Made by a program: the position numbers and the translations under genes. DNA of 64,000 nt from a virus. Taxonomy: Duplodnaviria; Caudoviricetes. Positions 22,578-47,104 of this stretch are shown here, in pieces. Position 1 is the first letter of the stretch. Each line of letters begins with the position of its first letter. The notes under the pieces were generated by a model, which saw only the letters and a program-made list of their open reading frames with translations, had not been told where the DNA came from and did not search any database. The stretch is from positions 8,495 to 72,494 of the IMG/VR virus record IMGVR_UViG_2844225640_000006, one strand, 5' to 3'.

Positions 22578-22584
22578 ATGTGTA

Positions 22585-23310: not shown

Positions 23311-23404
23311 ATTGCAGCATAAAGGGCAGGGAAAGCCTGCCTTTTGTGAAGCTATTCGGCTTCGATCCCCGCAATTATGCGACAAATGGAAAAGGAAATT
23401 CATC

Positions 23405-23971
23405 ATGGCAAATTTCAAGGTTCTCAAAGGTAACGCGCTCGGTAAAGCTATCGAAGGCCGTGGCGAAGCCATTGCCACGTTCACGGAAAAAGAGCACCAG
23501 CTTGCCTATTCGGCTATCGCTCATTTGGAAGAACACAACGATGCAAAGTATGTGAACGCGCTTTATGCCGTCACGCCGGTTAACTACCGTGCCGGATTGC
23601 GTGCATGGGTAGGCGCTTTTGCAAAGGCGAAGTTTGAAAAGGAATCGCAGACGTTCGTCTATGCGAAGGGCAAGGAATCGAACCTTGAAAAGGCGCTGGA
23701 AATTGCTCCGGCGAACTATGCCAAGGAATCCAACGCCGGCGCGGGCAAGGCGGCTAAGTCGCTTATGGAACGTGTGGAGTCCGCGGCGAAAAAGGTCATC
23801 GAAAATGAAGCTGCAAGCCGTGACGACAAGGCTTTCGCTCGCGCCTTGAATAACTTCCTTGCCATGCACAAGCGTGCCCTGACGCAGCCAAAGGCGGAAA
23901 AGCCTGCGAAGCCTGCCCCACGCCTTATCAAGGCGAAGCCGGAAGCAACGGCGGAAGCGAAGGCCGCTTAA
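23405..23971 (+). CDS. Hypothetical early phage protein
   Basis: AAGGA SD, preceded by an ANYA hairpin; MANFKVLKG... Confidence 0.75.
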   Translation: MANFKVLKGNALGKAIEGRGEAIATFTEKEHQLAYSAIAHLEEHNDAKYVNALYAVTPVNYRAGLRAWVGAFAKAKFEKESQTFVYAKGKESNLEKALEIAPANYAKESNAGAGKAAKSLMERVESAAKKVIENEAASRDDKAFARALNNFLAMHKRALTQPKAEKPAKPAPRLIKAKPEATAEAKAA

Positions 23972-24285
23972 TCTGAAAAATCGACAGGGCCGGGTCCGAA
24001 TAGGGCCCGGCTTTTCCGTGAACCCCTGCAAGGGCGCTTTCGCGCGCCTTTTCACGGCTTCACGCCGAATGCAGACGCCTAGCAGTCTATGTGCCGCCCG
24101 TCATTCGCCGGAAAGGTTCGACCTCCGATATGGTGCAATCCTCTTTTGCACGGGTATGTCACGGAATGCATAGGCGCGATGATATGAGCGGAAAACAGAT
24201 AGGCCATAGAGCCGATGGCACCGCAAAAAGATCTAGCCGCTAGGCGTCTGCGCCCACGCAATCATGCGCTCATGGAGAAATTGTC

Positions 24286-24471
24286 ATGCTTTCACGCCCG
24301 GAATCCGTCCGGCGGCAGGCTGATTATGCGCCTTTCCGCCACCCACATTTTGAGACTGCCAAGGCCGCACAACGTGCCGCTTTCCTGCGCGAGCTCGAAG
24401 AGTCGGTCAAGCGGTCTGACGCCATGCGCGCACGCCTTTCAACCGCTCGCGTCTTGGAGTCACTGCAATGA
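24286..24471 (+). CDS. Hypothetical protein
   Basis: GGAG SD, ANYA hairpin. Confidence 0.55.
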   Translation: MLSRPESVRRQADYAPFRHPHFETAKAAQRAAFLRELEESVKRSDAMRARLSTARVLESLQ

Positions 24472-24830
24472 AAACCATTCTCGCCGCACTCGCCTTCCTG
24501 CCTGTTTCGCTCCCGCATGATACGGCGCCTATTCCGCGCCCCGACATGCCTGCGCAATATGTCGTGGTCGCGTTCGACAAGGGCTTCACAAAGGCAACTG
24601 TCATCGAAGAATTTCGCGACATTGACGACCTCGAAGCATGTGTCGACGTCGCGCAGTCGTCCGGTGAAGGCCAGTGGACTTCATGCGTTCCCGTAACAGG
24701 TGAGGCTGAAGCGTATGCGCTCGCCGAACCAACGGACTCCATCGCCTGCCTTTTGGCCGCAATCCAGCCCACTGACGCGAACCTTGAAGCGTGCACGGGC
24801 ATTCCGGTAGCGGAGTCGATCCATGAATAG
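24468..24830 (+). CDS. Hypothetical exported acidic protein
   Basis: ATGA coupling; MKTILAALAFL signal-like start; four Cys. Confidence 0.55.
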   Translation: MKTILAALAFLPVSLPHDTAPIPRPDMPAQYVVVAFDKGFTKATVIEEFRDIDDLEACVDVAQSSGEGQWTSCVPVTGEAEAYALAEPTDSIACLLAAIQPTDANLEACTGIPVAESIHE

Positions 24831-25020
24831 CGTTTCGACCTGTCATCTCCCACTCGCCGCGCCGGGACTTATCAGCTTCCGGTGCCGCTCGCCTTTTGGC
24901 TGGATCATGATCGGCGCGCACGATCCCGACGACGCCATGTCTCAAGCCCGACGTTCCAGCGAGTCCGCAAGCCGTGACACGCTGCAAATATGGAACGGCT
25001 CGCGCTATGTGCCGGTGTAA
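24823..25020 (+). CDS. Hypothetical protein
   Basis: GGAG SD; coupled to upstream gene. Confidence 0.55.
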   Translation: MNSVSTCHLPLAAPGLISFRCRSPFGWIMIGAHDPDDAMSQARRSSESASRDTLQIWNGSRYVPV

Positions 25021-25024
25021 CGCC

Positions 25025-25216
25025 ATGCCGCGCCATTGGGAAACACACCTATACACCTACGCCGTCGCCTACCAGCAAGGCGACAAGATCAAGCCTGAAA
25101 ACCTTGCCGGTATGCGCCGCAAGGCGCTTTTGCACGGCCATACAGAAGGCCAATGCCTGCGAGTCGAGCAAGATCCCGGCCTTTACATTCGCACCGGACG
25201 CCTAAGCCCGGTCTAA
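25025..25216 (+). CDS. Hypothetical protein
   Basis: MPRHWETH...; fits operon packing. Confidence 0.5.
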   Translation: MPRHWETHLYTYAVAYQQGDKIKPENLAGMRRKALLHGHTEGQCLRVEQDPGLYIRTGRLSPV

Positions 25217-25260
25217 CCCGCACCCCGCACCCTGCAACTATGCACGAAAGGAAACGCGCC

Positions 25261-25515
25261 ATGAGCAACCCCGCTCAAGCCGCCCTGTCACGCGCCGTCA
25301 ACCGCGCAATCGCCAATGGCTCGCCTGTTGTCGTGAACGTCCCGCCGCGTATTGCGCCTGGATACCGCGCCTTTACCGGCCATGTTTTCACGGCAACGCA
25401 AGCGGCGGCTTACAACGCCGCGCTTGACCGATTCGAGCGGTCGCCGAATGAGGCGAACCAGAATGGCGCGCACAATCTTTTCTATTCCATCGCCTTGACC
25501 GGAAAGGAAGCATGA
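25261..25515 (+). CDS. Hypothetical protein
   Basis: AAGGA SD, ANYA hairpin. Confidence 0.6.
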   Translation: MSNPAQAALSRAVNRAIANGSPVVVNVPPRIAPGYRAFTGHVFTATQAAAYNAALDRFERSPNEANQNGAHNLFYSIALTGKEA

Positions 25516-25685
25516 CCGTGCGCAAACTGAAAGCATTTCTGCTTGGGATGCGGGAGTTCCGCCTGTCCATTACATGGGCTGACCCCGCTCGCACCGACGA
25601 CTGCGACTATACCGGGCTTGACGAATCCTACGACAGAGGCCGGGAATTTGCGCACCGTCTGACCCTGCGCGCCTTCGACGGCTGA
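25512..25685 (+). CDS. Hypothetical protein (57 aa)
   Basis: Read manually: MTVRKLKAFLLGMREF...; ATGA coupling. Confidence 0.5.
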   Translation: MTVRKLKAFLLGMREFRLSITWADPARTDDCDYTGLDESYDRGREFAHRLTLRAFDG

Positions 25686-25733
25686 CTACACCTTTCACCA
25701 CCCGCAAACATGCGAAAAGAGGAGATCCGCGCC

Positions 25734-25925
25734 ATGAAAGCGCCCGTTGCATACACATACGTCATATTGAACGAACGTCGCCGCTCGACGGCCCGCTGGT
25801 CGCTGGCAATCCAGTTCCCGAACGGAATCCTTGAGCGCCTCACGACATACAAAAGTCGTTACCGCGCCGTGTCCGCCGCAAAGACTCTCGCCGTCGGCTC
25901 CTGCCGCATAGAGGTGCGCGCGTGA
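25734..25925 (+). CDS. Hypothetical protein
   Basis: GAGGAG SD, ANYA hairpin. Confidence 0.55.
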   Translation: MKAPVAYTYVILNERRRSTARWSLAIQFPNGILERLTTYKSRYRAVSAAKTLAVGSCRIEVRA

Positions 25926-26204
25926 AAGATGCACTCCGCGAACTGGCTGACTTCCTTTGTTACGACGTCATGCCTGCCGTGGTCGTTACGGCCTTCATGC
26001 TTGTTTTCTGGGCTGTCGCGATAGCGATCCTGCCACAATAGTTTGGCCTCTGCCCCCGAGGCTGACTTCCGATCCCTCAAAACCGGAGGTGTCCCATGCG
26101 CCGGGCTTTTAAAGCCGGCTGACCCAACTCGGCGGGAAATCCGCGTGACCGCCCGCCCTCGTAACCGGCGCGCACCCCCTCGCAATCATGCAACAGAGAA
26201 AATT

Positions 26205-26294
26205 ATGTCTTTTGAGACCGTCTTTATCGCCATCGGCTTAATTCATATCGCCGCTTCGCTCGTCGCCTACCGCCTTTTGTTGCGGAGCAGGTAA
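26205..26294 (+). CDS. Small single-TM peptide (29 aa)
   Basis: MSFETVFIAIGLIHIAASLVAYRLLLRSR, preceded by an ANYA hairpin. Confidence 0.4.
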   Translation: MSFETVFIAIGLIHIAASLVAYRLLLRSR

Positions 26295-26331
26295 CGCTTT
26301 CACCCGCAACCATGCATATGAGGAGATCAAC

Positions 26332-27117
26332 ATGAATGCCGCCCTGCCGCTCATTGTGAGCCTGAATTGCGGGTGTTTCTTCCGTGGTCGGTTCCTGATC
26401 GAGACGCCCGAATGCGAAGAGCATCGCAAGCTCGACAGCCTCGACGACGAACCGACCGAGTTCAAGTTCGACCAGCTGTCCGACCGAGCGAAAGAACGCG
26501 CTCGCGAGAAATTCCGCGACGGCTATCTCAACTATGATTGGTGGGATTCTGTCTATGACGCCGCCGTTACCATCGCCGAAATGATGGGCATAGAGATAGA
26601 TGGCACCGCGCGGCAACCATCAATACAGTTCTCCGGCTTCTGGTCGCAAGGTGACGGCGCGTCGTTTTCAGGGCGCTGGACCCCATTGGCCGATCCGCTC
26701 GCCTCGCTCAACAAGGTGATGGAATACGCGCCACTGGACAAGGAACTGCATTCACTCGCCTTCGATCTGGCGTTGCTTTCCGAAGGATGCCGCGATCTCA
26801 TTCCCAATGCCTATGTCCGCGTCACCAACTCTGGATATTATTCACACTCCGGCAGCACGCATTTCGACATTGACCTGCCGCTCCCCGACAACATCGACGA
26901 GGACAACGAACTGCAAGTCATGGTCTATGAAGCCTTGCTCAAGGCTCGCGATCTGGACTTCGACTCATTCGAGGACCGCATCAAGGCAAGCCTGCGCGGC
27001 TTCATGGACTGGATATATGACCAGCTTGAGACCGAGCATGACTGGCTCATGTCCGATGAAAACATTGACGAGGCGCTCGCCGATTACAACTTCGATGAAG
27101 AAGGAGAGTTGCTTTGA
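26332..27117 (+). CDS. Acidic mobile-element protein (family often labelled antitoxin-like; function uncertain)
   Basis: FDQLSDRAKERAR, DWWD, FSGFWSQGDGASF motifs. Confidence 0.6.
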   Translation: MNAALPLIVSLNCGCFFRGRFLIETPECEEHRKLDSLDDEPTEFKFDQLSDRAKERAREKFRDGYLNYDWWDSVYDAAVTIAEMMGIEIDGTARQPSIQFSGFWSQGDGASFSGRWTPLADPLASLNKVMEYAPLDKELHSLAFDLALLSEGCRDLIPNAYVRVTNSGYYSHSGSTHFDIDLPLPDNIDEDNELQVMVYEALLKARDLDFDSFEDRIKASLRGFMDWIYDQLETEHDWLMSDENIDEALADYNFDEEGELL

Positions 27118-27326
27118 TAGCCGAGTTCTCAACCTATCTGCGCATCTTTGACGTGACCACGTTTGTCTCCGCCGCACAAGAACGAGCCAGAAACGAAGGC
27201 GTCGACGAGAATGACGTCAAAGAAATGTACAACGAGTCCAACTTGGACAATTGCCTCATCATGTTGCTCGATCCATCCACGCTTCCCGGTTGCGAAATCC
27301 TCGAAAGTAACGCCGAGATTGCCTGA
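27114..27326 (+). CDS. Hypothetical protein
   Basis: AGGAG SD, coupled TTG start. Confidence 0.55.
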   Translation: MIAEFSTYLRIFDVTTFVSAAQERARNEGVDENDVKEMYNESNLDNCLIMLLDPSTLPGCEILESNAEIA

Positions 27327-27362
27327 CACCCCGCCAACTATGGCACCACAACGGAGACTCCC

Positions 27363-28268
27363 GTGAATATCATGACCAATCCTCAATCCGTTTCCTCGGT
27401 CCTCGCCAGCCGCGCGATGATTGTTTCCCTGTCCATCTCGCAATGGTCAGGCCGTCGCCTTGACCGGCAGATCACCGACGAGGTCAACCAGAACCACGGC
27501 GCTGCCGCCGACGCTGGCCGCTACAACAAATTGCTCCTCCCGAAGGAAGCATTGGCGGAAATCGTATCCATCGTCGGCGAAACCCGCTCGGACTTCCTCA
27601 AACGCACCTTGCCTTGGATGGACAACGGTAGCCGCATCATGGCAAGCGATGCATATTTGCAGCATATGTCATGGGTGCGCGGTCAGGTCGCCAAGTTCGA
27701 CCGGGCTGTCGACAAATTCCTCGCTGACTACCCGCAATATGTGGCCGATGCCCGTGTCCGCCTGAACGGCATGTTCAAGGACGACGACTACCCCGACGCT
27801 CAAATCTTGCGCAGCAAGTTCGGCGTTGCCTGCAAGGTTCTTCCGGTCCCCACCTCGGAAGACTTCCGCGTGGACATGAGCCAGGCACAAGCTGACCGCA
27901 TCCGCGAGGAGATCGAACAGCAAGTCTCCGACGCCACCACGGAAGCGGTGCGTGATGTTTACCGCCGCGTGGCAGACGTCACAGGACGAATGGTCGAAAG
28001 GCTCAACGCCTACAAGCCAGCCGGTCGTCCGGGTGACAAGACGGAAGGCGTGTTTCGCGACAGCCTTGTCGAGAATGTGCGCGATCTGATTAGCGTCTTG
28101 CCCGCGCTCAACATCATTGGCGACCGCGAGCTTTCCGCCATGGTCGAACGGCTCAAGCCATTGGCCGAGCACAATGCGTCGACCCTGCGCGATAGGCCGG
28201 AGATCCGCCGCGACGTAGCCGATGAGGCTCAGAAAATCCTCGACAGCGTCTCCGGCTTCTTGGCCTGA
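27363..28268 (+). CDS. Helical protein, DUF3150-like
   Basis: LSISQWSG, KLLLPKEAL, TLPW, YPD motifs; same operon as MoxR/vWA genes. Confidence 0.55.
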   Translation: MNIMTNPQSVSSVLASRAMIVSLSISQWSGRRLDRQITDEVNQNHGAAADAGRYNKLLLPKEALAEIVSIVGETRSDFLKRTLPWMDNGSRIMASDAYLQHMSWVRGQVAKFDRAVDKFLADYPQYVADARVRLNGMFKDDDYPDAQILRSKFGVACKVLPVPTSEDFRVDMSQAQADRIREEIEQQVSDATTEAVRDVYRRVADVTGRMVERLNAYKPAGRPGDKTEGVFRDSLVENVRDLISVLPALNIIGDRELSAMVERLKPLAEHNASTLRDRPEIRRDVADEAQKILDSVSGFLA

Positions 28269-28280
28269 GACAAATAGAAT

Positions 28281-28494
28281 TGCAGGAGCGAGGCGCCCGC
28301 TCCTGCATTTGGCGTGGCATGGCTTGGTAGGGCGCGGCGGGGCAGCGCATGGCAGGCATGGCATGGCGCGGCGTGGTATGGCTCGGCTTGGCGCGGCAGG
28401 CTAGGCGCGGCTAGGCGAGGCGCGGCGAGGCAAGGCGCGGCGAGGCCGGGCAGGCTCCCACCCAAAAGCCGCCGCTCTCTGAAAAGGGAGCGGC
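28281..28494 (+). ncRNA. GGY-NN pentamer array 1 (three units: 8, 8, 10 pentamers) with flanking hairpins; candidate guide RNA
   Basis: 5-nt periodic GGC/GGT+NN from 28311 to 28457; GGCA delimiters at 28351, 28395, 28449; 10-bp 5' stem 28281-28307; GAAA-loop stem 28471-28494. Confidence 0.75.
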
Positions 28495-28581
28495 ACCTCA
28501 AAGTTCTCCTCTTCACCGGGGAGCCTTTTGAGGTGTCAGAACGGCACTACGAACCCAATGCAATCATGCATCCAAGGAAAC

Positions 28582-29265
28582 ATGTTCATGGCAAAAGCAG
28601 CAACCAAAGTCGAAACCGGAATCACTCTTCCGAAGCTCAACATCCAGCTCATGGAAGTGGTGGTCATCGGCGACTCCCCGCTCATCGTCCACGCTTGGTC
28701 TGAAAAGGCCAAGAAGGAAATGCTGGACAAGCAGTTGAAGGTAGCGAAGGGCGCTCGTGAAGCGAAAGACCCTGTCGCAGACTTCCAGAACACTATGTAT
28801 CGCTTCGAAGACGGCGGTCACGGCTTCCCGTCCATCGCCTTCAAGGCGGCAGCTGTCACCGCTGGCACATCCGTTGCGGGACTCACCAAGATCGCAGCGA
28901 GACAGGCGTTTCATATGCTCGGCGAGAACGCCGACATTGCCGGTGCTTTTGATGGGGCGCAGTCCCGCACGAACCTCGTGCGAATCCTCGGCTCCGAACC
29001 CCAGATGCGTGAAGACATGGTCAGGGTCGGAATGGGCACGGCAGACATCCGCTACCGTGCGGAATACCCGGATTGGCACGCAAAACTGCTCGTTCGCTAC
29101 AATGCAAACGTGCTGTCCGAAGCACAGATTCTCAACCTCATCAACGTGGCAGGCTTTGCTGTCGGCGTCGGCGAATGGCGCCCCGAAAAGGACGGCAATT
29201 ACGGCATGTACCATGTCGCCACCGAGAAGGAACTGAAGGCGCTTGGTGTGCAATCACCGGGCTGA
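28582..29265 (+). CDS. Stand-alone Cas7/RAMP-like protein
   Basis: VVVIGDSPLIVH, FPSIAFKAA, and C-terminal Gly-rich loop GVGEWRPEKDGNYG in RAMP order; AAGGA SD. Confidence 0.7.
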   Translation: MFMAKAATKVETGITLPKLNIQLMEVVVIGDSPLIVHAWSEKAKKEMLDKQLKVAKGAREAKDPVADFQNTMYRFEDGGHGFPSIAFKAAAVTAGTSVAGLTKIAARQAFHMLGENADIAGAFDGAQSRTNLVRILGSEPQMREDMVRVGMGTADIRYRAEYPDWHAKLLVRYNANVLSEAQILNLINVAGFAVGVGEWRPEKDGNYGMYHVATEKELKALGVQSPG

Positions 29266-29271
29266 AACAAT

Positions 29272-29422
29272 ACAGGGTCGCGTTGCCATCGTGGCCCTGT
29301 TTAGGCGAGGTATGGCAGGCAAGGCAGGGCTTGGCTGTGCGAGGCAGGGCGCGGCGGGGCAAGGCCGGGCAGGCTCACCCACCAGCGGCCAAGGGGCAGC
29401 ATTCAACCGCCCCATTTCTTTT
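29272..29422 (+). ncRNA. GGY-NN pentamer array 2 (one 10-pentamer unit); candidate guide RNA
   Basis: Periodic 29304-29376; GGCA at 29314 and 29368; 5' stem 29272-29300; 3' GGGGC/GCCCC stem plus T run. Confidence 0.75.
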
Positions 29423-29448
29423 CAACAACCAACAGAGGAGTAGCTGCA

Positions 29449-29994
29449 ATGGTAAAGATTGCATCTTACGGCTTCGCAGAGGGTTCCCGTTTCCAGAAAG
29501 GCGCGAATACTTCCGCCCCCGAACTGGTCGGTGAACACCTTGAGACTATCCGCAAGGCGAAAGACGGTAAGCTCACACCCGACGACGTGGTGGCCGACGC
29601 TCGTAATCCCAACTCTCCGCTGCATTCGTTCTTTGAGTGGGACGATTCAGCAGCAGCTCATGAGCACCGGCTTCGGCAGGCTCGCCAGCTGATCCGCACG
29701 ATCGTTGTGCGCTATCAGGAAGTCGAGTCCAAGGAACCGATACGGGCCTATGTTAATGTCCGCTCACCCAACAGTGACAATGGGAATGAACCGGACAGCG
29801 ATGAACCACGTCAGTATTACACCGACACGATCGAAGCGCTCTCTGCCCCTGACATGCGAAGGGCCGTGCTTCTCCGGGCAAAGTCCGAGCTTGACGCTTG
29901 GCGCAAGCGATATGCCGACCTCGAAGAATTGTCCATCGTCGTGCGGACCATCACCAAGATGTCCGAAAAAGTCGGCGAACTGGCTGATGCTTGA
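29449..29994 (+). CDS. Partner protein of the RAMP-like locus (phage hypothetical)
   Basis: LTPDDVVADARNPNSPLHSFFEWDD..A..HRL.QARQLI motif; GAGGAG SD; flanked by arrays 2 and 3. Confidence 0.75.
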   Translation: MVKIASYGFAEGSRFQKGANTSAPELVGEHLETIRKAKDGKLTPDDVVADARNPNSPLHSFFEWDDSAAAHEHRLRQARQLIRTIVVRYQEVESKEPIRAYVNVRSPNSDNGNEPDSDEPRQYYTDTIEALSAPDMRRAVLLRAKSELDAWRKRYADLEELSIVVRTITKMSEKVGELADA

Positions 29995-30010
29995 ACCCAA
30001 ACAAATAATT

Positions 30011-30118
30011 GGCGTGGTGGGGCAGGCAGGGCTTGGCATGGCAGGGCTTGGCTTGGCCCGGTGCGTCTCGTTTCGGCAGGCAAACACGGGGATTCGTTCG
30101 CGGCTCCCCTTTTCTTTT
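30011..30118 (+). ncRNA. GGY-NN pentamer array 3 (one 10-pentamer unit) plus terminator; candidate guide RNA
   Basis: Periodic 30011-30083; GGCA at 30021 and 30075; GGGGA..TCCCC-TTTTCTTTT terminator 30088-30118. Confidence 0.75.
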
Positions 30119-30147
30119 CAGCAATCATGCAAACTAAGGAGACGAGC

Positions 30148-30561
30148 ATGAGTGTGCGCAATCTTCCATCGCCTGTTCGATTCCTCCTCATCCCGGTACT
30201 CGGCGACATCAAAGAGGAACGGTTTACGGTTGCGCCCGCCACGGTGGTTCCCCGTGCCAAACTATTGGAGCATGTGCGGACGTTCTTCGACGAACCAATC
30301 GAGCGCGTGAACGTGCTCTATCGGGGCGAGTACCGCGATATGTTCGTCGGCGAGACGTCGGCCATCAACGGTCGCCACATCCGCAATATCCGGGCGACCG
30401 AAGTCTACCGGGCAAATGCGCTGGAAAATCACTGGCGTCTCAATTCACCCGACCCGACAAAGGCGAAGCCTATCGATTTGTCGTGGACACTCGACCCTGA
30501 AATTCTACCGGCCATCTCTGGTCCGGCGGTTCTGTTCCCAGATTATCAAGTGTGGGAATAA
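30148..30561 (+). CDS. Hypothetical protein
   Basis: AAGGAG SD, ANYA hairpin. Confidence 0.65.
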   Translation: MSVRNLPSPVRFLLIPVLGDIKEERFTVAPATVVPRAKLLEHVRTFFDEPIERVNVLYRGEYRDMFVGETSAINGRHIRNIRATEVYRANALENHWRLNSPDPTKAKPIDLSWTLDPEILPAISGPAVLFPDYQVWE

Positions 30562-30578
30562 CCCCGAAAGGAAACCCC

Positions 30579-30758: not shown

Positions 30759-30800
30759 CTCTCAACATCCCGCCAAGCATGGCAAACACGGAGAACTTCT

Positions 30801-31802
30801 ATGAACCTCAAGTCCGCAACGACTCTGCTCAACCACTTCATTGACGCCGACATTCCGGCATTCATGTGGGGCCCTCCCGGCGTCGGCAAGTCCGCTTCGC
30901 TGCATCAGATTGTGACCGAGCGTAAATGGGGAATGGTGGACTTCCGCGCTTCGACCCGTGACTCGGTGGCGTTGATGGGCCTGCCTGATATTTCCGGCGA
31001 GACCACCCGCTGGAAAGTGCCGGACGAATTTCCGCAGGCCGAACGTGACGGCGAGGAAGGCATCCTGTTTCTCGACGAACTGAACGCCGCGCCACCTTCG
31101 ATGATGGCGGCAATGTTTGGCCTGGTCCTTGACCGCAAGGTCGGCGACTACGTGCTGCCCAAGGGCTGGCGCGTAGTTGCGGCTGGCAATCGTCAGGCTG
31201 ACCGTGCTGCGGCACAGCGTATGCCTACCGCTCTCGCTAACCGCTTCGCTCACATCGACGTCGATGCAGATACGAGCGCCGGACATGACAATGTCCACGT
31301 CGAATACTTCAATCAGATCGGCGTTGATCCGCAGCTCATTGCCTTCCTTCGGTTCCGTCCGGCACTGATCCATTCGATGCCGAAGAATGATGAGCGTGCG
31401 TTCCCAACGCCCCGTTCGTGGGAACAGGCGGCGAAGATCCTGAATCTTCCGACGGCACTCCGCCTGCAGGGTGTATCCGCTATCGTCGGTGAAGGCGCTG
31501 CGGCTGAACTGGAAGGATTCCTTCGTGTTTACCAGAACTTGCCTTCGCTAGATCTGGTACTCGCCAATCCGAACAGCGCGCCTATCCCGGAAGACCCGGC
31601 GGCTCGCTTTGCAATCTCCGCTGGCCTTGCCCGTAAGGTTGATGAGCGGTCTTTCGACAACGGCATGGCTTACATGCAGCGCTTGCCTCGTGAGTTCGAG
31701 ATTATGATGTGCGTCGATGCGGTGCGTCGTGAACCGAAGCTCAGCCATACGCAGACGTTCACTTCGTGGGCCATGAGAAACCAAGACGTCACTCTAGGCT
31801 GA
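30801..31802 (+). CDS. MoxR-like AAA+ ATPase
   Basis: GPPGVGKS, LFLDE, AAGN, ALANRF, PTPRSW. Confidence 0.9.
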   Translation: MNLKSATTLLNHFIDADIPAFMWGPPGVGKSASLHQIVTERKWGMVDFRASTRDSVALMGLPDISGETTRWKVPDEFPQAERDGEEGILFLDELNAAPPSMMAAMFGLVLDRKVGDYVLPKGWRVVAAGNRQADRAAAQRMPTALANRFAHIDVDADTSAGHDNVHVEYFNQIGVDPQLIAFLRFRPALIHSMPKNDERAFPTPRSWEQAAKILNLPTALRLQGVSAIVGEGAAAELEGFLRVYQNLPSLDLVLANPNSAPIPEDPAARFAISAGLARKVDERSFDNGMAYMQRLPREFEIMMCVDAVRREPKLSHTQTFTSWAMRNQDVTLG

Positions 31803-31806
31803 TGCC

Positions 31807-32139
31807 ATGGCAGAAATCCGCGCCATCTTCGGCCCTTACAAGACGGAAGAACAGACCTCGCGCATCACTTGGTTCTTCTCCGGCGTCCGAGCGGACGGGG
31901 AGTTCACGGCGTGGTCTCTCCGTTTTCAATTCGATACGCGGCGCTATACGTGCCGCGTCATCAAGAACAAGCAGGCAGCAAAGTATGCCGCGTCCATAAG
32001 TCATAAAGACTTGTTCAGCCTCCCCGAAGCAGCGCGGTCGGAAGTCAGTTGTGGCCGCGTGACGGACATGCTCAAGGCCAAGCTTTCACCAGAGCAAATC
32101 GCTCGGGCTACGGCGCTGGCTATACAATACAGGAGGTGA
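31807..32139 (+). CDS. Hypothetical protein, paralog A
   Basis: Shares IR..FGP and LK.KLSPE.IARATAL with the next gene. Confidence 0.65.
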   Translation: MAEIRAIFGPYKTEEQTSRITWFFSGVRADGEFTAWSLRFQFDTRRYTCRVIKNKQAAKYAASISHKDLFSLPEAARSEVSCGRVTDMLKAKLSPEQIARATALAIQYRR

Positions 32140-32519
32140 TGATGGCCATCATTCGCAGGGTCTTCGGTCCCTTCCACCCTGAACACATCCATCCGGGCAC
32201 GCAGGCTGAGGAGCTGCGATGGCATTTCATCGGCATCAAGGACGACAAGACGACAGCACACTGGACATTGGTCTTTGACCCTCGCAAGCGAACTTATCGG
32301 GTCAACAACAATACCAGCAGCGGCGGCTTGATTGGCCGCAGCCGAAAGGCATTGATCGCCCAAAAGATAGATCCGGGTGTCAATTGTGAGACTGCTCACC
32401 CCGACGCCTGGCTCGACGACTCTCCAGTCATGGAGGGCACCATCACCAGCATCCTGAAATCGAAACTCTCACCAGAGGATATTGCCAGGGCGACCGCGCT
32501 GGTAATCGCAAGGAGATGA
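32139..32519 (+). CDS. Hypothetical protein, paralog B
   Basis: AGGAGG SD; motifs shared with paralog A. Confidence 0.65.
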   Translation: MMAIIRRVFGPFHPEHIHPGTQAEELRWHFIGIKDDKTTAHWTLVFDPRKRTYRVNNNTSSGGLIGRSRKALIAQKIDPGVNCETAHPDAWLDDSPVMEGTITSILKSKLSPEDIARATALVIARR

Positions 32520-32522
32520 ATC

Positions 32523-32816
32523 GTGCTGACTACCGACGTCATCATGAACAACTTCAGGAAGAGCGACCACGCTGACAATCGCTGGAGCTTTGCTCCGCTT
32601 CCCGAAACCGTTCTCAACACGCACCTTTACTACCTTTCGTTCATCAAGCAGGAGCGGCGGTTCATGCTGTCTCGAAAGCAGATCGTGCCCTTCATCCCGA
32701 TCGAAGATGACGAACTCCTGCAGGCGTTCAAGGCGACACTGCATGCAGACGAAGTGGCTGCGTGCATGAGATCCACTCTCGATCAGGGCGTCGACCCGGA
32801 TGACATTCCATTCTGA
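32523..32816 (+). CDS. Hypothetical protein ending DDIPF
   Basis: AGGAG SD; SSB-like C-terminal DDIPF. Confidence 0.55.
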   Translation: MLTTDVIMNNFRKSDHADNRWSFAPLPETVLNTHLYYLSFIKQERRFMLSRKQIVPFIPIEDDELLQAFKATLHADEVAACMRSTLDQGVDPDDIPF

Positions 32817-32831
32817 TACACGGAGGCCAAC

Positions 32832-33989
32832 ATGAAAACCGAAGACAAGATCCTCGCCGCACAGACGTCGCTACTTTGGGACCAGCCATTCTTTGGCGTC
32901 CTCATGCTCCAGCTTAAAAAGGTGCGGGTGGATGACCCGAAGAAGGTCGATACGATGGCGACAGACGGCCGTCATCTCTTCTACCACCCGCCCTTCGTCG
33001 ATGAGCTGAAGAAGGACGAGCTGGTTTTCGTGCTGGCCCATGAGGTCATGCACAACGCCCTGGAGCATCACATCCGACGCCAGTCCCGTAAGCCCGGCCG
33101 CTGGAACGATGCCTGCGACTACGCCATTAACGGCGAGCTGGTCGAATGCAAGGTCGGCAAGATGCCAGAGCGCGGCCTGCTCGAGGCGCGCTTCACCGGT
33201 CTTTCAGCCGAGGAGATCTACCGTATCCTCGACGACGAGAACAACGGCGACGACTCCGCTGAAGGGCAGGGCGATACCGGTGGTTGCGGTGGAACGATGG
33301 ATGGCTGCGCACAGCACGACGAGGCAGCCAAGGCCGAGCTGCGTGCCGAGATGCAAACGCAGATCAGGCAGGCTGCCATGACCGCCAAGGCTGCGCAGGC
33401 TGGTAAACTTCCGGCTGGCGTGCAGCGTATCATCGACGAGCTGCTCATGCCGAAGGTCGACTGGCGGGCTGTTCTCCGCCGCTTCATCGACGAGTCCAGC
33501 ACCCGTGATTTCTCATGGTCGAGGCCGAACCGTCGCCTGCTTCCGCTTGGTCTGGTTACTCCGGGCACAGTTTCGGATGGCGTCAGCCATATCGTGATCG
33601 CGGTTGACACATCTGGCTCGATCGACGAGCCCACGCTCAATGCCTTTGCTGCCGAGGTGCGGGGAGCATTCGAGGAAGGCTCTGTCGACAAGATCGACGT
33701 GGTCTACTGCGATGCAGCCATCAACCACACAGAGCAATTCGAAATGGGCGACGAGCTGTTCATCCGTGCGGTAGGCGGGGGCGGCACTCGCTTCTCGCCT
33801 GTCTTCGAATGGGTGACCGAGAAAGCAGCCGACACCAAGCTGGTGATCTACCTAACAGACTTGCTCTGCAATGACTTCGGCGACGAGCCGCACTGCCCGG
33901 TTATCTGGGCGCACTATGGAACGAAGAGCCAATTTCAGCAGCTCAGCCCCAACGTTCCGTGGGGTGAGTGCGTACACATCGAGCCTTAG
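32832..33989 (+). CDS. DUF2201-type metallopeptidase-vWA protein
   Basis: TMATDG, HEVMH, N.ACD.AIN, MIDAS DTSGS, GGGGTRF, YLTD. Confidence 0.9.
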   Translation: MKTEDKILAAQTSLLWDQPFFGVLMLQLKKVRVDDPKKVDTMATDGRHLFYHPPFVDELKKDELVFVLAHEVMHNALEHHIRRQSRKPGRWNDACDYAINGELVECKVGKMPERGLLEARFTGLSAEEIYRILDDENNGDDSAEGQGDTGGCGGTMDGCAQHDEAAKAELRAEMQTQIRQAAMTAKAAQAGKLPAGVQRIIDELLMPKVDWRAVLRRFIDESSTRDFSWSRPNRRLLPLGLVTPGTVSDGVSHIVIAVDTSGSIDEPTLNAFAAEVRGAFEEGSVDKIDVVYCDAAINHTEQFEMGDELFIRAVGGGGTRFSPVFEWVTEKAADTKLVIYLTDLLCNDFGDEPHCPVIWAHYGTKSQFQQLSPNVPWGECVHIEP

Positions 33990-33998
33990 GAGGAATAA

Positions 33999-34634
33999 TT
34001 GCCCATCTTACTCGACCTGACTGGCCAGCAGTTTGGCCGGTTGATTGCTATAGCCAGAGATCCAACCGCACGCCCTACACGCTGGTCATGCAGATGTGAG
34101 TGCGGCAACACGAAAGTCGCTGCCACGAACGACCTCAGGCAGGGGAAAACGAAATCCTGCGGCTGCTTGAGAGTTGAAGTGACCGGGGGAAAGAACCGCA
34201 CCCACGGTCTGCGACAGCACCCCCTCTACGATGTATGGCAAAGCATTAAAGACAGGTGCCTAAATCCTAACAATCCTCAGTTCAAAGATTATGGCGGGAG
34301 AGGAATAAAAATCTGCGATGAATGGGCGCACGATGGCGCTGCGTTCATCGCATGGGCAGAAGCCAACGGCTACCGCGCCGGCCTCATCATCGATCGCGAG
34401 AATAACAATTGGGGATACAGCCCCGAGAATTGCCGGTTCGTTACGCGGAAGACCAGCAACCGCAACAAGCGGAACACCAACTACATCGACACTCACCTCG
34501 GTCGCATGATGCTGGCTGAAGCGGTCGAGATCTCCGGCTTGGGCAGGGACACCATCCGACGCCGCTTAAAGTTGGGATGGCCCGCATCAAAGATCCTTCA
34601 GCCCGCCCGAGCGATGAAGAAGAGCAGCAAATAA
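33999..34634 (+). CDS. HNH-type homing endonuclease-like protein
   Basis: DLTGQQFGRL, C.CECG, SCGC, YGGRGI.IC.EW, IDR.NN..GYSPENCR. Confidence 0.8.
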   Translation: MPILLDLTGQQFGRLIAIARDPTARPTRWSCRCECGNTKVAATNDLRQGKTKSCGCLRVEVTGGKNRTHGLRQHPLYDVWQSIKDRCLNPNNPQFKDYGGRGIKICDEWAHDGAAFIAWAEANGYRAGLIIDRENNNWGYSPENCRFVTRKTSNRNKRNTNYIDTHLGRMMLAEAVEISGLGRDTIRRRLKLGWPASKILQPARAMKKSSK

Positions 34635-34663
34635 CCCACCACCCGGCATGAAAGGATAATTCC

Positions 34664-34975
34664 GTGCCCCACACACAAGGACCGTGGGCGGTCGACGACT
34701 GCCCGCTCGACATCGAACATGCCTGCACCATGCTCAAGGTCGATGCCAATACGCCACGAGAATGGGTGGGTATCTGCACCCCTCGCGATGCGGACGGCAA
34801 CTACGAGCACGTTGCTTACTGCCACATATCGAATGCTCCGGTGATCGCAGCCTCCACAGTGATGCTGGATCTCCTGCGCCGCAATCTCAATGCGTGGGAA
34901 GACGAAGAGGATTCCGTGCAGGAAGAGCACGAGGAACTGATCGTCGATCTGCGCCAGTTTCTGAAGGACAAGTGA
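34664..34975 (+). CDS. Hypothetical phage protein (HT.GPW family)
   Basis: HTQGPW...NA..IAA motif. Confidence 0.65.
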   Translation: MPHTQGPWAVDDCPLDIEHACTMLKVDANTPREWVGICTPRDADGNYEHVAYCHISNAPVIAASTVMLDLLRRNLNAWEDEEDSVQEEHEELIVDLRQFLKDK

Positions 34976-34976
34976 C

Positions 34977-35189
34977 ATGCCTAGCTATCTCGTCACATGG
35001 GAGATCGACATCGATGCCGAGACCGCACATGACGCGGCTCGGCAGGCACATGAGATCGTCCGCCGGCCGGATACATCGGCCAATGTCTACAAGGTCATCG
35101 AACATGACAGTAGCAGCGAGACGGTAACGGTTGATCTTGAAGAGGACGCGCCTCCACCGCCTCCAGATTGGAACGTGCGTCATGGTTAG
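34977..35189 (+). CDS. Hypothetical protein
   Basis: ORF packing in the operon. Confidence 0.55.
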   Translation: MPSYLVTWEIDIDAETAHDAARQAHEIVRRPDTSANVYKVIEHDSSSETVTVDLEEDAPPPPPDWNVRHG

Positions 35190-35236
35190 CCAGCACCTTC
35201 GAAACACCACTCGCAATCATGCGAAAGGAAGAGAAC

Positions 35237-35821
35237 ATGACGACCAAGTTCCGCGATCAACAAAGCTTCAACCACCTCCAGATGGAGGCAGCTCTCTGTG
35301 CCTGGGAATGGATGCTGGAGAACAACACGCACGAGATATTCAACGGTATGTTCGATAGCCATGGCTACGGCGCGATGCGCCATTGCGCCATGCAGGCCGG
35401 CGACATTGCCAACCTGGTTTACAAGCATATGGAAGTGCGGGGTTACGAGTTCGTCGACGCCTACGATTGGGAGTTCGTGCCGGGCGTGCTGCTCCGACTG
35501 GATTGGGAGAAGCTCTTCATGGACAACCAGTACAACGAAGAGCCTTACCAGCCTGACATTCACGCCATCTTCTGCGCCATGGTCTCCGCCGACTTGGCAG
35601 CTCACACCGACCCGCAGCGCCGCAGCTTCCAGAAGAAAGAAGACACTGCAATCTGGATCACCAAGGCCCGTGCTGAAGCCGAGAAGCAATGGGGCTACAG
35701 CGATCTCGTCTCCGATCACCCGGAGAAGGTGACGGCTGCCATGGAGCGCGACGAAGATCCGGCCGAGTTCATCAAGTGGCTCGGCGAGAAATACAATCTC
35801 ACTCCGGCGCCGGGGTTGTGA
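35237..35821 (+). CDS. Hypothetical protein
   Basis: AAGGA SD, ANYA hairpin. Confidence 0.65.
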   Translation: MTTKFRDQQSFNHLQMEAALCAWEWMLENNTHEIFNGMFDSHGYGAMRHCAMQAGDIANLVYKHMEVRGYEFVDAYDWEFVPGVLLRLDWEKLFMDNQYNEEPYQPDIHAIFCAMVSADLAAHTDPQRRSFQKKEDTAIWITKARAEAEKQWGYSDLVSDHPEKVTAAMERDEDPAEFIKWLGEKYNLTPAPGL

Positions 35822-35824
35822 CGC

Positions 35825-36010
35825 ATGCAAGACTTCGTCGTCACAATGACCCTCGAACTCGTCGTTGAAGCCGACAACCCCGGCTCGGCTGTGTCCGATA
35901 CGGTCATCCGCCTGCAGAAATTGCTTGAAACTCACGACCCGCTGCTGTTGAGTTCTATGCTACGGGAGGCGGTTGCTTATACAGCTGCCAAATCTCCCTG
36001 TAGGATTTAG
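35825..36010 (+). CDS. Hypothetical protein
   Basis: ORF packing in the operon. Confidence 0.45.
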   Translation: MQDFVVTMTLELVVEADNPGSAVSDTVIRLQKLLETHDPLLLSSMLREAVAYTAAKSPCRI

Positions 36011-36028
36011 CGGGCAAGGGAGGCTCAA

Positions 36029-36235
36029 ATGGAAGAAGGCTTTTTCCATTCACCATTCAACATCATCGCTATTGGAATCATTCTCTTCTTCTATTTCATG
36101 CCGACGATCTTTGCATTTCGCCACGGACGACCCGACTCGTGGGCTATATTGATTATCAATACAGCTTTCGGGTGGACGCTTATCGGTTGGATTGGCTCGA
36201 TGTTCTGGTCGATGGCTCCTGTCCAACGGCAGTAA
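36029..36235 (+). CDS. Superinfection immunity protein (T4 Imm-like)
   Basis: YFMPT.FA..H...AI.IIN...GWTLIGW...WS pattern; GGAGG SD. Confidence 0.85.
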   Translation: MEEGFFHSPFNIIAIGIILFFYFMPTIFAFRHGRPDSWAILIINTAFGWTLIGWIGSMFWSMAPVQRQ

Positions 36236-36256
36236 TGCACTCCTCATAAACACACC

Positions 36257-36289
36257 AAAGGCCGGGTCATTCGCCCGGCCTTTTCTTTT
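36257..36289 (+). terminator. Intrinsic terminator
   Basis: AAAGGCCGGG..CCCGGCCTTTTCTTTT. Confidence 0.7.
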
Positions 36290-36330
36290 CTACCCCCTCG
36301 CAATCATGCGACCCCACGGAGATCTATACC

Positions 36331-37491
36331 ATGAGCAATATCGACAACGTCACCGCCACTGTTTCGACTGCTTCTCTCAACTACTCGGTTTTCAGGAAGG
36401 CTATTGAGAACGCCTGCAAGATCGTCGAACGTCGCAACATCATCCCCGTTCTCGATACCGTCCTCATCAAGGCGACGACGAATGGCGTCTATGTTCTCGG
36501 CACTGACCTCGACATCTGCACCACGACCTTTGTGCCGGGCAATGTATCCAAGGACTTCACCGCTCTGGTCGATGCTCACAAGCTCAAGGCCACAATGGAT
36601 AAGGTGAAGGATGCTCCGGCCATCAACTTCGCCATGTCGCAGAAGAAGCTCACTGCCAACATCGGGAAGCTGAACCTGACATTGAAGCAGGATATTCCAG
36701 CCGAAGATTTCCCTGAAAGCCACGCCTTCCGGGACCGGTTGAGTGAGTCAAACCATACGTTCACGCTGCCGTCAGCCACGCTGCTCAAAATCCTCAACAA
36801 GGTCCAGTTCGCTATCTCCACGGAAGAGACGCGGTACTATCTCAACGGCGTGTATATGCACGTCATCGAGAACTCGCACCACATCACCTTCGTCGCCACG
36901 GACGGCCACCGGCTGGCTCGATATGAGATGCCTGCGCCAGAAGGCGCAAACGGTATCCCCGCTGTCATCATCCCTCGCAAGACAATTGTTGAACTGATGC
37001 GGCTCCTCAAGCGCAAGGGCTGCCCGGAAGAAACGATGATCACGGTTTGCAAGACCGGCGTTCGGTTCACTGTCGGCGAGGACGAGACCGTGGACAGCAA
37101 GGTCATCGACGGACAATTCCCGGATTACACCCGCGTCATCCCTATGAACAACGATCACCACGCCACGATCTATCCGGCTTCCTTCATTGACGGCGTCAAG
37201 CAGGCCAGCGCGGTTCTCCCTTCAAAGGGCGGCTCGGTCTCGGTCAACTTCCTGCGGGGGATAGCCTCTCTCACGTGTCGTGATGTCGACTTCGGTGAAG
37301 CATCCGTCGATGTCTCGATTGAGAACGAGCGGTCGCTGGAGATCGGATTCAACGCCCAATACCTGATCGACATCCTTTCGCACGTCGATGGTGAAGCGAA
37401 GTTCATGCTCATGGGCGCTGGAGATCCGGTCGTCATCCGCAACTCGGACGATGATTACCTGACCTTCGTTCAGATGCCGACGCGCATCTAA
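36331..37491 (+). CDS. dnaN: Phage-encoded DNA polymerase III beta clamp
   Basis: RNIIPVL, TDLD, EETRYYLNG, ATDGHRL, IIPRK, IDGQFPDY.RVIP, GFNAQYL, MP.R. Confidence 0.93.
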   Translation: MSNIDNVTATVSTASLNYSVFRKAIENACKIVERRNIIPVLDTVLIKATTNGVYVLGTDLDICTTTFVPGNVSKDFTALVDAHKLKATMDKVKDAPAINFAMSQKKLTANIGKLNLTLKQDIPAEDFPESHAFRDRLSESNHTFTLPSATLLKILNKVQFAISTEETRYYLNGVYMHVIENSHHITFVATDGHRLARYEMPAPEGANGIPAVIIPRKTIVELMRLLKRKGCPEETMITVCKTGVRFTVGEDETVDSKVIDGQFPDYTRVIPMNNDHHATIYPASFIDGVKQASAVLPSKGGSVSVNFLRGIASLTCRDVDFGEASVDVSIENERSLEIGFNAQYLIDILSHVDGEAKFMLMGAGDPVVIRNSDDDYLTFVQMPTRI

Positions 37492-37583
37492 CCACCCTCC
37501 GTCACACCTCAACACCCACTGCGATGGCGCTCCTCTCGGGGCGCCATATCGGGGCGTGTTGCCCTTTTTCAACGGAGAACAAT

Positions 37584-38549
37584 ATGAAAAAGTTTAGCAT
37601 CATCTTCATCGCATCCCTCGCTCTTTCGACCTCGTCTGCCCTTGCTTCCGATGGCTGCACCGGCAGTGCCACGCTTATGAAGTGGCTTCAGGGTTGCCGC
37701 GATCTTCCGAGCAGCGTGCGGGTTATCGACCACTCCGGTGGCGACCGCACCCCAGGCGCTAAGAGCTCCTCGGGTGGTAACGGTGCAGCCAGTGGCGGAG
37801 AGTCCAGCGCCAATGCTGGCGGCAATTCCGGCGGAACCAGCGGCACTACCAACAACGGCAACTCCGGCGGCTCCAGCAATGCTGGCAACTCTGGCGGCGG
37901 CAGCAACGGCGGTTCGAACTCCGGCAGCACTGGCGGCGGCAGCAACGGCGGTTCGAACTCCGGCAGCACTGGCGGCTCCACGGGTGGAAACACTGGCGGC
38001 TCCGGCAATTCCGGTGGCGATACTGGTGGTAACTCCGGCGGTGATACCGGTGGGAACAACGGTGGAAACACTGGCGGGGATACCGGCGGTAACACCGGAG
38101 GCGGCAGCGACAACGGCGGCGGCGACACCGGTGGCAATACCGGCGGAGGTGACAACGGCGGTGGCGGTGACACTGGCGGGAACAACGGCGGTGATAATGG
38201 CGGTGGCGACACTGGCGGCGGTGACACTGGCGGGAACAACGGTGGCGACAACGGAGGGGATAATGGTGGCGACACCGGCTCCGGCGGTAACAACGGCGGC
38301 CACAATGGCGGAGACCACACCGGCAACGGCCCAGGTAATGGCAATGGCAACGGCGGCAACCACGGCAATGGTGGCGGAAACAACAACGGCTCCGGTCCAG
38401 GTTCGGGTAACGGCGGCCACAACAACGGCAATGGCAACGGTAACGGTAACGGCCATGGCAACAGTGGTGGCAATGGTCACGGCAATGGCGGTGGCGGCAA
38501 TGGAAACGGAGGCGGTAATGGCGGTGGCGGAAAGGGTGGCCGCCACTAA
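37584..38549 (+). CDS. Secreted Gly/Asn/Asp/Thr-rich low-complexity protein
   Basis: Signal peptide MKKFSIIFIASLALSTSSALA, two Cys, then GG(D/N)(T/N) repeats; GGAG SD. Confidence 0.7.
   Translation: MKKFSIIFIASLALSTSSALASDGCTGSATLMKWLQGCRDLPSSVRVIDHSGGDRTPGAKSSSGGNGAASGGESSANAGGNSGGTSGTTNNGNSGGSSNAGNSGGGSNGGSNSGSTGGGSNGGSNSGSTGGSTGGNTGGSGNSGGDTGGNSGGDTGGNNGGNTGGDTGGNTGGGSDNGGGDTGGNTGGGDNGGGGDTGGNNGGDNGGGDTGGGDTGGNNGGDNGGDNGGDTGSGGNNGGHNGGDHTGNGPGNGNGNGGNHGNGGGNNNGSGPGSGNGGHNNGNGNGNGNGHGNSGGNGHGNGGGGNGNGGGNGGGGKGGRH
37891..37968. repeat. 39-bp tandem duplication (2 copies)
   Basis: CTGGCGGCGGCAGCAACGGCGGTTCGAACTCCGGCAGCA twice. Confidence 0.85.
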
Positions 38550-38630
38550 CCCATAATCCACACACAACAAGCGGGGCACTTCGGTGCCCCGTCCATCATC
38601 CCGCCAAACATGGCAACCACGGAGATTGAA

Positions 38631-40208: not shown

Positions 40209-40245
40209 GAGGGTAAGTGTGAGTCAGTAACAACGAGGGATTCCC

Positions 40246-47062: not shown

Positions 47063-47104
47063 ATGTCTGGCATTATTGCCGGGGTGAATGCTGTAGGCTT
47101 TAGG

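Follow-up and report, generated by a model that had tools for sequence, protein, structure and literature searches.

The window analysed here, a 64-kb stretch (64,000 nt; positions 8,495 to 72,494) of the 72.5-kb IMG/VR provirus record IMGVR_UViG_2844225640_000006, carries a repeated module of approximately 30 nt in which a small hairpin stands just upstream of a Shine–Dalgarno (SD) sequence. From 5′ to 3′, the module consists of a C-rich tract, a stem of 3–5 bp around a CA-NNYA-TG apex, an A/C-rich spacer, a GGAGA SD and the start codon. The hairpin module is real, strongly non-random, lineage-specific and start-associated: its stem pairs, its spacing is fixed, it always lies sense to the gene behind it, and it is absent from the late genes. 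Beyond these observations we infer action as RNA, the existence of a trans-acting factor and a direction of control. Judging from the sequence comparisons, we tentatively favour, at somewhat less than even confidence, the reading that the hairpin is an RNA operator for a factor of the phage lineage, which would control translation or cleavage at the adjacent ribosome-binding site (RBS).

The pattern CNSCAANYATGS was matched 11 times in the window (10 on the plus strand) against 1.43 ± 1.05 expected, and none of 100 shuffles reached 11. An unbiased scan for ANYA-loop hairpins closed by CA/TG recorded 18 plus-strand and 2 minus-strand cases. Alignment of 85 sites from the window and its relatives gave the consensus ..CCCC-GCAATCATGC-A....GGAGA, in which an invariant C-A-A..A-T-G core is followed by an A/C-rich spacer poor in G and T, and then by the SD. 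G was absent (0/85 sites) from the four positions 5′ of the stem, and C accounted for 96% and 85% at two of them, in agreement with the C/A-rich tract described in the initial annotation, which was made by a model from the letters of the window. A covariance model was built from these 85 sites and supplies the bit scores given below. At E<0.01 it detected 16 copies in the window, each in the sense orientation of the gene that follows; 14 were training sites, and two (26171–26208 and 47053–47090, the latter on the minus strand) were outside the training set. When 11 related sources (262 kb, both strands) were searched, 121 of 121 model matches were sense to the downstream gene. Rfam cmscan of the whole window at E≤1 revealed no family for the module, only a tRNA (62671–62752, minus strand) and a sub-threshold STnc310 match at 25077–25138. 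A literature text search for the 12-mer returned a single match, in an unrelated paper. The main text of a report on an Ochrobactrum phage (PMC5492332), for which supplementary motif tables may exist, does not contain the words hairpin, stem-loop, intergenic, inverted repeat or promoter.

The initial annotation had listed thirteen stem-loop-stem strings between 23370 and 38614, and all thirteen were found on the plus strand where it had placed them. Each is followed by an SD-like word and then a start codon, and twelve precede open reading frames (ORFs) of 61–525 codons. The first, CGCA-ATTA-TGCG at 23370..23381 (33.9 bits; module 23360–23397), is ahead of the ATG at 23405 of a phrog_1448-like gene, the first core gene. 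It is followed by CGCA-ATCA-TGCG at 24257..24268 (25.3 bits; ATG 24286, 61 amino acids (aa)), TGCA-ACTA-TGCA at 25233..25244 (27.7 bits; ATG 25261, 84 aa) and CGCA-AACA-TGCG at 25703..25714 (32.5 bits; ATG 25734, 63 aa). The hairpin GCA-ATCA-TGC at 26182..26191 (27.8 bits, outside the training set) has a weak SD, GAGAA, and an ATG at 26205 that opens an ORF of 29 codons conserved in the relative L009. Behind GCA-ACCA-TGC at 26306..26315 (24.8 bits) is a phrog_5162 gene (ATG 26332, 261 aa), behind GCCA-ACTA-TGGC at 27333..27344 (26.3 bits) a 301-aa ORF with a GTG start at 27363 and a weak DUF3150 match, and behind ATGCA-ATCA-TGCAT at 28558..28571 (20.7 bits) a phrog_4652 gene (ATG 28582, 227 aa). 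Immediately 5′ of GCA-ATCA-TGC at 30121..30130 (21.6 bits; ATG 30148, 137 aa) is a terminator-like GGGGA...CTCCCC stem plus TTTTCTTTTC. The gene of a MoxR-type AAA_5 ATPase (ATG 30801) follows GCCA-AGCA-TGGC at 30772..30783 (29.6 bits), and a 194-aa ORF (ATG 35237) follows TCGCA-ATCA-TGCGA at 35211..35224 (30.4 bits). The second TCGCA-ATCA-TGCGA, at 36298..36311 (29.6 bits) ahead of dnaN (ATG 36331), lies directly behind a terminator-like hairpin (36257–36283) and its T tract. The last string, GCCA-AACA-TGGC at 38603..38614 (29.7 bits), precedes a gene for a DUF4942 and methyltransferase protein (GTG 38631) and is itself preceded by a strong hairpin (38572–38591) with no T tract. The earlier gene names MoxR, dnaN and methyltransferase were recovered by the family searches, whereas the name RAMP was not, with no RAMP-family match in Pfam, PHROGs, NCBIfam or PADLOC.

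The hairpins are not confined to this range, as had been supposed. On the plus strand, TCCA-AGTA-TGGA, then ACCCACGGAAA, is located at 61279..61290 (27.6 bits), behind a dCTP deaminase gene and ahead of a small ORF upstream of the integrase gene. On the minus strand, CCCC-GGCA-ATAA-TGCC, followed by GGAGA and an ATG at 47050 (82 aa), has its hairpin at 47069..47080 (18.6 bits, outside the training set; module 47053–47090) and is sense to its minus-strand gene. Two other module-like hairpins, both weak and atypical, were not counted as copies: GGCA-CTTA-TGCC at 46776–46787 (minus strand; 14.7 bits), which is without a clear SD or gene behind it, and CTTCA-AGCA-TGAAG at 55471–55484 (plus strand; 17.3 bits, in the training set), which is at the start of the ORF 55442–55816.

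Pairing was assessed in 109 distinct family sites. The inner pairs were C-G in all 109 and A-U in 105 or G-U in 4; the closing A-U pair was thus replaced by G-U in 4/109 sites and never by A-C or another mismatch, which fits a plus-strand transcript. Outside these, pair 12-21, adjoining the core, was GC in 69 sites, CG in 37 and UA in 3, with none unpaired, and the next pair out, 11-22, was GC in 40, CG in 30, UA in 9, UG in 1 and unpaired in 29. The covariation score was 0.422 against 0.105 in shuffles (0 of 500 reached it, although such counts are not probabilities because related phages share ancestry), and slid partners gave at most 0.033. The covariation of the stems noticed in the initial annotation is therefore confirmed. 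The same picture was obtained with the first, motif-anchored alignment for pair 11-22, which was not used to select sites. At the apex, C, G and U were each found in 109 sites and the last loop A in 108. That the apex is invariant while the outer pairs vary points to a recognised apex on a generic stem rather than merely a stable hairpin. The loop had been described as always ANYA; this is true of 13/13 strings in the window, but family-wide of only 90/109 sites, the general form being NNYA with Y in 107/109.

Orthologous sites gave a similar result. At the site of the first gene, the stems among relatives were CGCA/TGCG, GCCA/TGGC, GGCA/TGCC and GCCG/TGGC. At the ATPase site of 10 relatives the stem was kept, as GCCA/TGGC, GCCG/TGGC or CGCA/TGCG, with a G-U closing pair in two, and the loops were AGCA, GATA, CTCA, AATA, ATCA and CGCA.

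The position of the hairpin relative to the RBS is narrowly set. The SD was exactly GGAGA in 83/110 sites and matched at least four of the five letters in 108. The distance from stem to SD was 7–8 nt in 65 of 108 sites (range 4–12 nt, standard deviation 1.4), that from stem to start codon was 13–24 nt (standard deviation 2.3), and the start codon was ATG in 93/106. The thirteen hairpins lie in a plus-strand block of non-structural genes (23119..40698), for which gene starts were taken from our own ORF calls, as were the gaps of the late operon. In this block, a module was present ahead of 13 of the 16 genes with a gap of at least 30 nt and ahead of none of the 14 genes that overlapped or had a shorter gap. 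The late operon has five gaps of 33–67 nt, and no covariance-model match was found in it.

A promoter could also stand ahead of genes in this way. It would consist of a −10-like element only, with CAANYAT serving as A-11 ... T-7 for host RNA polymerase assisted by a phage co-factor or a phage sigma factor, or of an extruded hairpin, and would give each module-bearing gene a short-leader transcript. We consider this quite unlikely. The information profile of the core does resemble a −10 hexamer (invariant A, low N and Y, invariant A, T), an A-rich stretch lies where the start would fall, and the modules at 36298, 23370 and 30121 are directly behind terminator-like hairpins with T tracts, while that at 38603 is behind the strong hairpin that has none. 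However, nothing is conserved upstream of −7: in the 85 sites all positions from −45 to −7 hold 0.23 bit or less, with no −35 element. The compensatory and G-U changes, which fall at −15/−14 and −5/−4, would have no role in sigma-70-type recognition, and in the 7/108 sites where the SD begins 4–5 nt after the stem, a start 7 nt past the T would be on or inside the SD. These findings weaken the hairpin-type promoter that the initial annotation had offered as an option. A consensus promoter scan of 21.5–41 kb gave 3 sites against 8.0 expected, none of them at a module. No Sigma70_r2 match was obtained in the provirus record, and the largest ORFs, 886–926 aa outside the window and 787 aa inside it, are far below the size of an N4-type virion RNA polymerase. 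The PF00940 profile for single-subunit RNA polymerases had matches in none of the control genomes and was given no weight either way.

Sigma-54, CcrM, IHF, attC, upstream-AUG and small-RNA-seed readings were set aside without a dedicated test. The TGGCAC of GCCA-type stems lacks TTGC at −12 for a sigma-54 promoter, the motif reads CAATC where CcrM would need GANTC, integron attC sites are far longer, an upstream AUG used as start codon would not keep its frame, and covarying flanks do not agree with a single trans RNA; an IHF site was considered and dropped.

The strict orientation of the sites could alternatively reflect oriented DNA repressor sites, similar to the stoperators of cluster A mycobacteriophages, that stop RNA polymerase in the accessory block during lysogeny. 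The sites are indeed numerous and asymmetric, keep one orientation with respect to transcription, occupy short intergenic spaces and are absent from the host, and a CI-like repressor gene is present at 49818–50498. A double-stranded reading, however, gives no reason for compensatory changes or G-U tolerance, and leaves unexplained why the sites are tightly coupled to the SD and not to gene ends, so we give this explanation very little credence.

Five host genomes (27.7 Mb) contained 48 matches, of which 47 were on the prophage contig, clustered around the prophage. Among 150 other genomes of the order, a count that is not exhaustive as only part of the first-look candidates were scored, 8 had 1–2 isolated matches and none had a cluster. 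As matches are nearly confined to prophage contigs, a general host system is an unlikely reader of the module. There were 10–16 modules per record in five related virus records and 6–15 in four further IMG/VR records, while a record whose ATPase is only 38% identical had no module and was also missing the first gene. Relatives were found in IMG/VR records and in genomes titled Brucella (formerly Ochrobactrum) pecoris and tritici, Ensifer, Pseudochrobactrum, Rhizobium, Ancylobacter and Peteryoungia. The module-bearing lineage is one of temperate myovirus-like prophages of Hyphomicrobiales, whose hosts are root- and soil-type bacteria. A near-identity DNA search of phage and plasmid collections with 26000–38700 gave no match.

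Close relatives differ in gene content between modules, and several homology blocks begin at the hairpins. Between the window and L009, 3 of 8 block starts lie no more than 2 nt from a hairpin's 5′ edge (24257, 27331 and 30771), another block starts at 30146, at the start codon behind a hairpin, and a block shared with the relative L029 starts at 27330. These mosaic joints at module edges suggest that modules delimit the units exchanged by these prophages. It is conceivable that the module mainly serves as a short homology for gene swaps by relaxed homologous recombination and has spread with its cassettes, as the joints and the variable gene content would suggest. Homology, however, needs no compensatory stems, no fixed SD distance and no invariant apex; any mosaic phage should show joints at gene borders, and alignments run on into shared motifs. 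This explanation is therefore improbable as the main function, and the joints are more likely a consequence of the shared module than a selected function.

When the modules were folded in their sequence contexts with ViennaRNA, core pair probability was at least 0.8 in 10 of 14 contexts from the window, and the spacer and SD were mostly unpaired in the predicted folds. Such folds, together with the A/C-rich, G/T-poor spacer, also suit a factor-independent cis element, in which the hairpin would insulate the RBS from upstream sequence or be left as a protective 5′ stem-loop by cleavage in the C/A-rich tract; either way, the translation of each cistron would be made steadier and more even with no dedicated binder. 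The upstream gene's stop codon is within 12 nt of the core in 29/99 sites, often as TAA-CCC-hairpin, so that a ribosome terminating there would melt the hairpin and reset it, and the binder searches described below yielded no binder. A cis element nevertheless leaves unexplained the invariant C-A...U-G pairs, loop A and loop-3 Y in 109 sites from at least 11 phages, the choice of an ANYA/NNYA loop over a stable GNRA or UNCG loop, and the limitation to non-structural genes of one phage lineage. We regard it as unlikely.

An RNA operator is favoured because the data speak for a single-stranded structure sense to the gene, for recognition of the apex by its sequence and for a role coupled to the RBS. 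The hairpin would form in the mRNA as the structured core of a start-associated module, laid out as CC-rich tract, C-A-[N-N-Y-A]-U-G apex, A/C-rich spacer, GGAGA, 5–6 nt and AUG. One trans-acting factor supplied by the phage lineage may read the apex by sequence and structure and, since the hairpin ends 7–8 nt before the SD, binding would place it on that side of the RBS where the 30S platform lies. From there it could switch all module-bearing cistrons (early or accessory, and non-structural) at the same time: 30S binding might be blocked or aided, in the manner of T4 RegA or the MS2 coat protein, or the adjacent GGAG might be cut under its direction, in the manner of T4 RegB. The regulon of RNA operators proposed in the initial annotation fits the compensatory and G-U changes, the invariant apex and the 7–8 nt SD spacing.

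Several points weigh against an RNA operator with a phage reader. Besides the shared ancestry that affects the shuffle counts, the 109-site alignment was fitted to the structure of the model and so leans towards structure. The stems are short (−0.2 to −4.5 kcal/mol folded alone), 29/109 sites have only three pairs, and core pair probability was 0.5 or less in 3 of the 14 ViennaRNA contexts. At least three modules are behind terminator-like hairpins (two read by eye), which also suits a promoter. The 21 matching sequencing runs, two of them recorded as RNA, are assembled contigs, a form without transcript ends; four sets compared with 22000–41000 gave no positions at which molecules start or stop. 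As to a binder, no match to Levi_coat (PF01819), RegA (PF01818) or RegB (PF10715) was found at E≤1 in the 72.5-kb record, and no protein of the operon matched an RNA-binding family in Pfam, NCBIfam or PHROGs.

A more specific form of this proposal, in which a phage protein would read the CA-NNYA-UG apex 7–8 nt before the SD in as many as 16 non-structural cistrons and turn these on or off together at the ribosome platform, while the module doubles as a cassette joint, is possible but more doubtful. By co-occurrence only, the candidate readers are conserved core-gene products, above all that of the first gene (23405–23971), which always carries a module. Its structure model (pLDDT 70.3) had no Foldseek match in PDB at E≤0.001, and a wide VIA structure search gave only long-helix matches (Z up to 7.5, residues 112–165). 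In the Atlas it falls into unnamed viral clusters; the nearest named families, DUF3102 (0.80) and Phage_Repressor_c (0.79), are below lead level. Three further module-bearing records share the first gene, a DUF3150-like gene, the ATPase gene and a VWA/DUF2201 gene, and co-occurrence with these four shared genes picked out no single binder. PADLOC gave no match on the core genes.

A protein resembling ribosome modulation factor (RMF) was also considered as module reader and dropped. Its gene was present in 1 of 4 further module-bearing records (three of them incomplete) and not in the module-free fifth. The gene, at 48614–49102 on the minus strand, is the first of the minus-strand early block and encodes 162 aa. 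The C-terminal 40 residues match Pfam RMF with 28.8 bits against a cut-off of 27.9, the NCBIfam RMF score was 20.5 against a cut-off of 40, and a six-homologue profile recovered no RMF chains from PDB. Its structure model has a pLDDT of 52.7, and its Atlas neighbours carry GapR_DNA-bd and RMF on 10–20% of members, the N-terminal part being GapR-like. The protein is conserved in five relatives at 59–75% identity, in three of which a module directly follows the gene.

The closest described kind of element is the start-associated sequences (SAS/ESAS) of cluster K mycobacteriophages. In PMC3203893, SAS are described as a 13-bp asymmetric consensus, GGGATAGGAGCCC, with up to 2 deviations, 3–7 bp from the start. 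About half have an inverted repeat just upstream, with repeats of 17 bp, and, according to the authors, the way in which the ESAS arms depart from the consensus lends little support to an RNA hairpin. SAS/ESAS have been known since 2011, and a 2025 paper still calls for experimental verification of their function. As far as these accounts go, both kinds are short repeats a few bases before starts that include or adjoin the SD, with near-single orientation and ATG preference, and both are conserved across subclusters, stand before different gene families, only at non-structural genes, and are essentially absent from the host. The module showed this behaviour in its own counts (121/121 sense, 0 in the late operon, 47/48 on the prophage contig, ATG in 93/106). 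It does not match the SAS consensus GGGATAGGAGCCC, however, and differs in sequence and architecture. From what these sources describe, the conserved part is around the SD in SAS but 5′ of it in the module, and, unlike in ESAS, pairing in the module is backed by compensatory and G-U changes in a stem of 3–5 bp with a tetraloop. The described SAS/ESAS phages are siphoviruses of Actinobacteria, whereas the module is carried by myovirus-like prophages of Hyphomicrobiales.

The MS2 coat-protein operator has a bulged purine below its loop, and its hairpin contains the start region of the regulated gene. Like the module, it is a small RNA hairpin with an A-N-Y-A tetraloop near a translation start, so the loop resemblance pointed out in the initial annotation holds; it works through a bound protein that stops initiation, one of the modes proposed for the module. 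The likeness goes no further: module stems are uninterrupted, with no bulged A and bulges in 0/109 sites of the model alignment; the stem ends 4–12 nt (mode 7–8) before the SD, which with the AUG lies outside the hairpin; and the module occurs in 13–16 copies per genome of a dsDNA prophage that has no Levi_coat domain (PF01819, E≤1). In lambda-type boxB, a 5-bp stem carries a five-base GNRA-like loop, with 1–2 sites per operon that are not tied to an SD, and the N4 hairpin promoters have a 5–7 bp stem and a three-base loop and are read by a giant virion RNA polymerase. These too are small hairpins with conserved loops, read in the nut and N4 systems by a phage protein. The four-base NNYA loop sets the module apart from boxB, and the boxB-like antitermination mentioned in the initial annotation fits poorly because there are 13–16 copies per phage, each attached to an SD at 7–8 nt. 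From the N4 promoters it differs in its four-base loop, its 3–5 bp stem and the ORF sizes given above (largest 886–926/787 aa). The module is not a member of the MS2, boxB or N4 family. T4 RegA and RegB act on a class of early phage mRNAs, after transcription and via ribosome-binding regions, as we propose for the module; RegB cuts inside GGAG, and the SD word is exact (GGAGA) in 83/110 modules. No homologue of RegA (PF01818) or RegB (PF10715) was found in the provirus at E≤1, and the abstract on the RegB/S1 target (PMC1702504) describes an 11-nt single-stranded element of GGA and an A-rich 3′ stretch that needs no hairpin.

SAS/ESAS-like repeats, whose function is still open in the accounts consulted, would gain a counterpart that shows the same behaviour plus a compact covarying hairpin. 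Should the more specific reading given above be right, the module would be the first repeat at phage gene starts whose RNA structure is demonstrated, and would provide a model for the SAS/ESAS class. If a phage factor reads the hairpin, it would represent a new post-transcriptional co-regulation of accessory and early genes in temperate phages of Alphaproteobacteria, including the genes for a methyltransferase, a superinfection-immunity protein and a sliding clamp, and would offer a small orthogonal RNA tag-and-reader pair. Even as only a portable ribosome-binding cassette, the module would mark gene-exchange units and help to annotate short ORFs and true start codons in the lineage. The compact hairpin, invariant apex and fixed SD distance lead to sharp predictions for loop and stem mutants.

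The provirus record has an estimated completeness of 89%. In the window, tail, baseplate, head and terminase genes form the late structural operon (1–21 kb, minus strand), and the plus-strand block of 23119..40698 encodes the phrog_1448-like, phrog_5162, DUF3150 (weak match) and phrog_4652 proteins, the MoxR-type AAA_5 ATPase, a DUF2201 metallopeptidase/VWA protein, an HNH-like nuclease, the superinfection-immunity protein, DnaN and the DUF4942 methyltransferase. Helicase, primase and methyltransferase genes follow on the minus strand (41–49 kb), with the CI-like repressor gene at 49818–50498 and the integrase gene at 61.5 kb. An AT-rich divergent region between the late operon and the plus block (22440–22620), with repeated ACGTATA/TATACGT-like words, is probably the promoter and operator region of both. 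The initial annotation had called the plus block an operon; it is a block on one strand, but it has terminator-like hairpins inside. Those with T-rich tails are at 23325–23348, 29395–29425, 30085–30120 and 36257–36290 (plus strand), several ending in TTTCTTTTC, and three are directly ahead of a module. The one at 36257–36290 follows the superinfection-immunity gene (36029–36235), which looks like a self-contained moron.

Also on the plus strand, a 341-aa ORF (37524–38549) is full of 12–54-nt tandem repeats encoding Gly/Asn/Asp-rich units; it has no family match in Pfam, PHROGs or NCBIfam, and neither a module nor an SD precedes it, in contrast to its neighbours. Arrays of a degenerate NNGGC pentamer at 28310–28451, 29314–29371 and 30021–30062 (plus strand; approximately 28, 10 and 8 units) occupy the long gaps around the genes 28582–29265 (phrog_4652) and 29449–29994 (phrog_15946). 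With a triplet at every fifth base, the arrays are reminiscent of the RNAs bound by ring-shaped proteins, e.g., TRAP. The close relatives L009 and L029 lack the whole 1.9-kb stretch 28270–30145, and a scan of 10 related loci found no array of this kind; length variants within the arrays are present in metagenome contigs.

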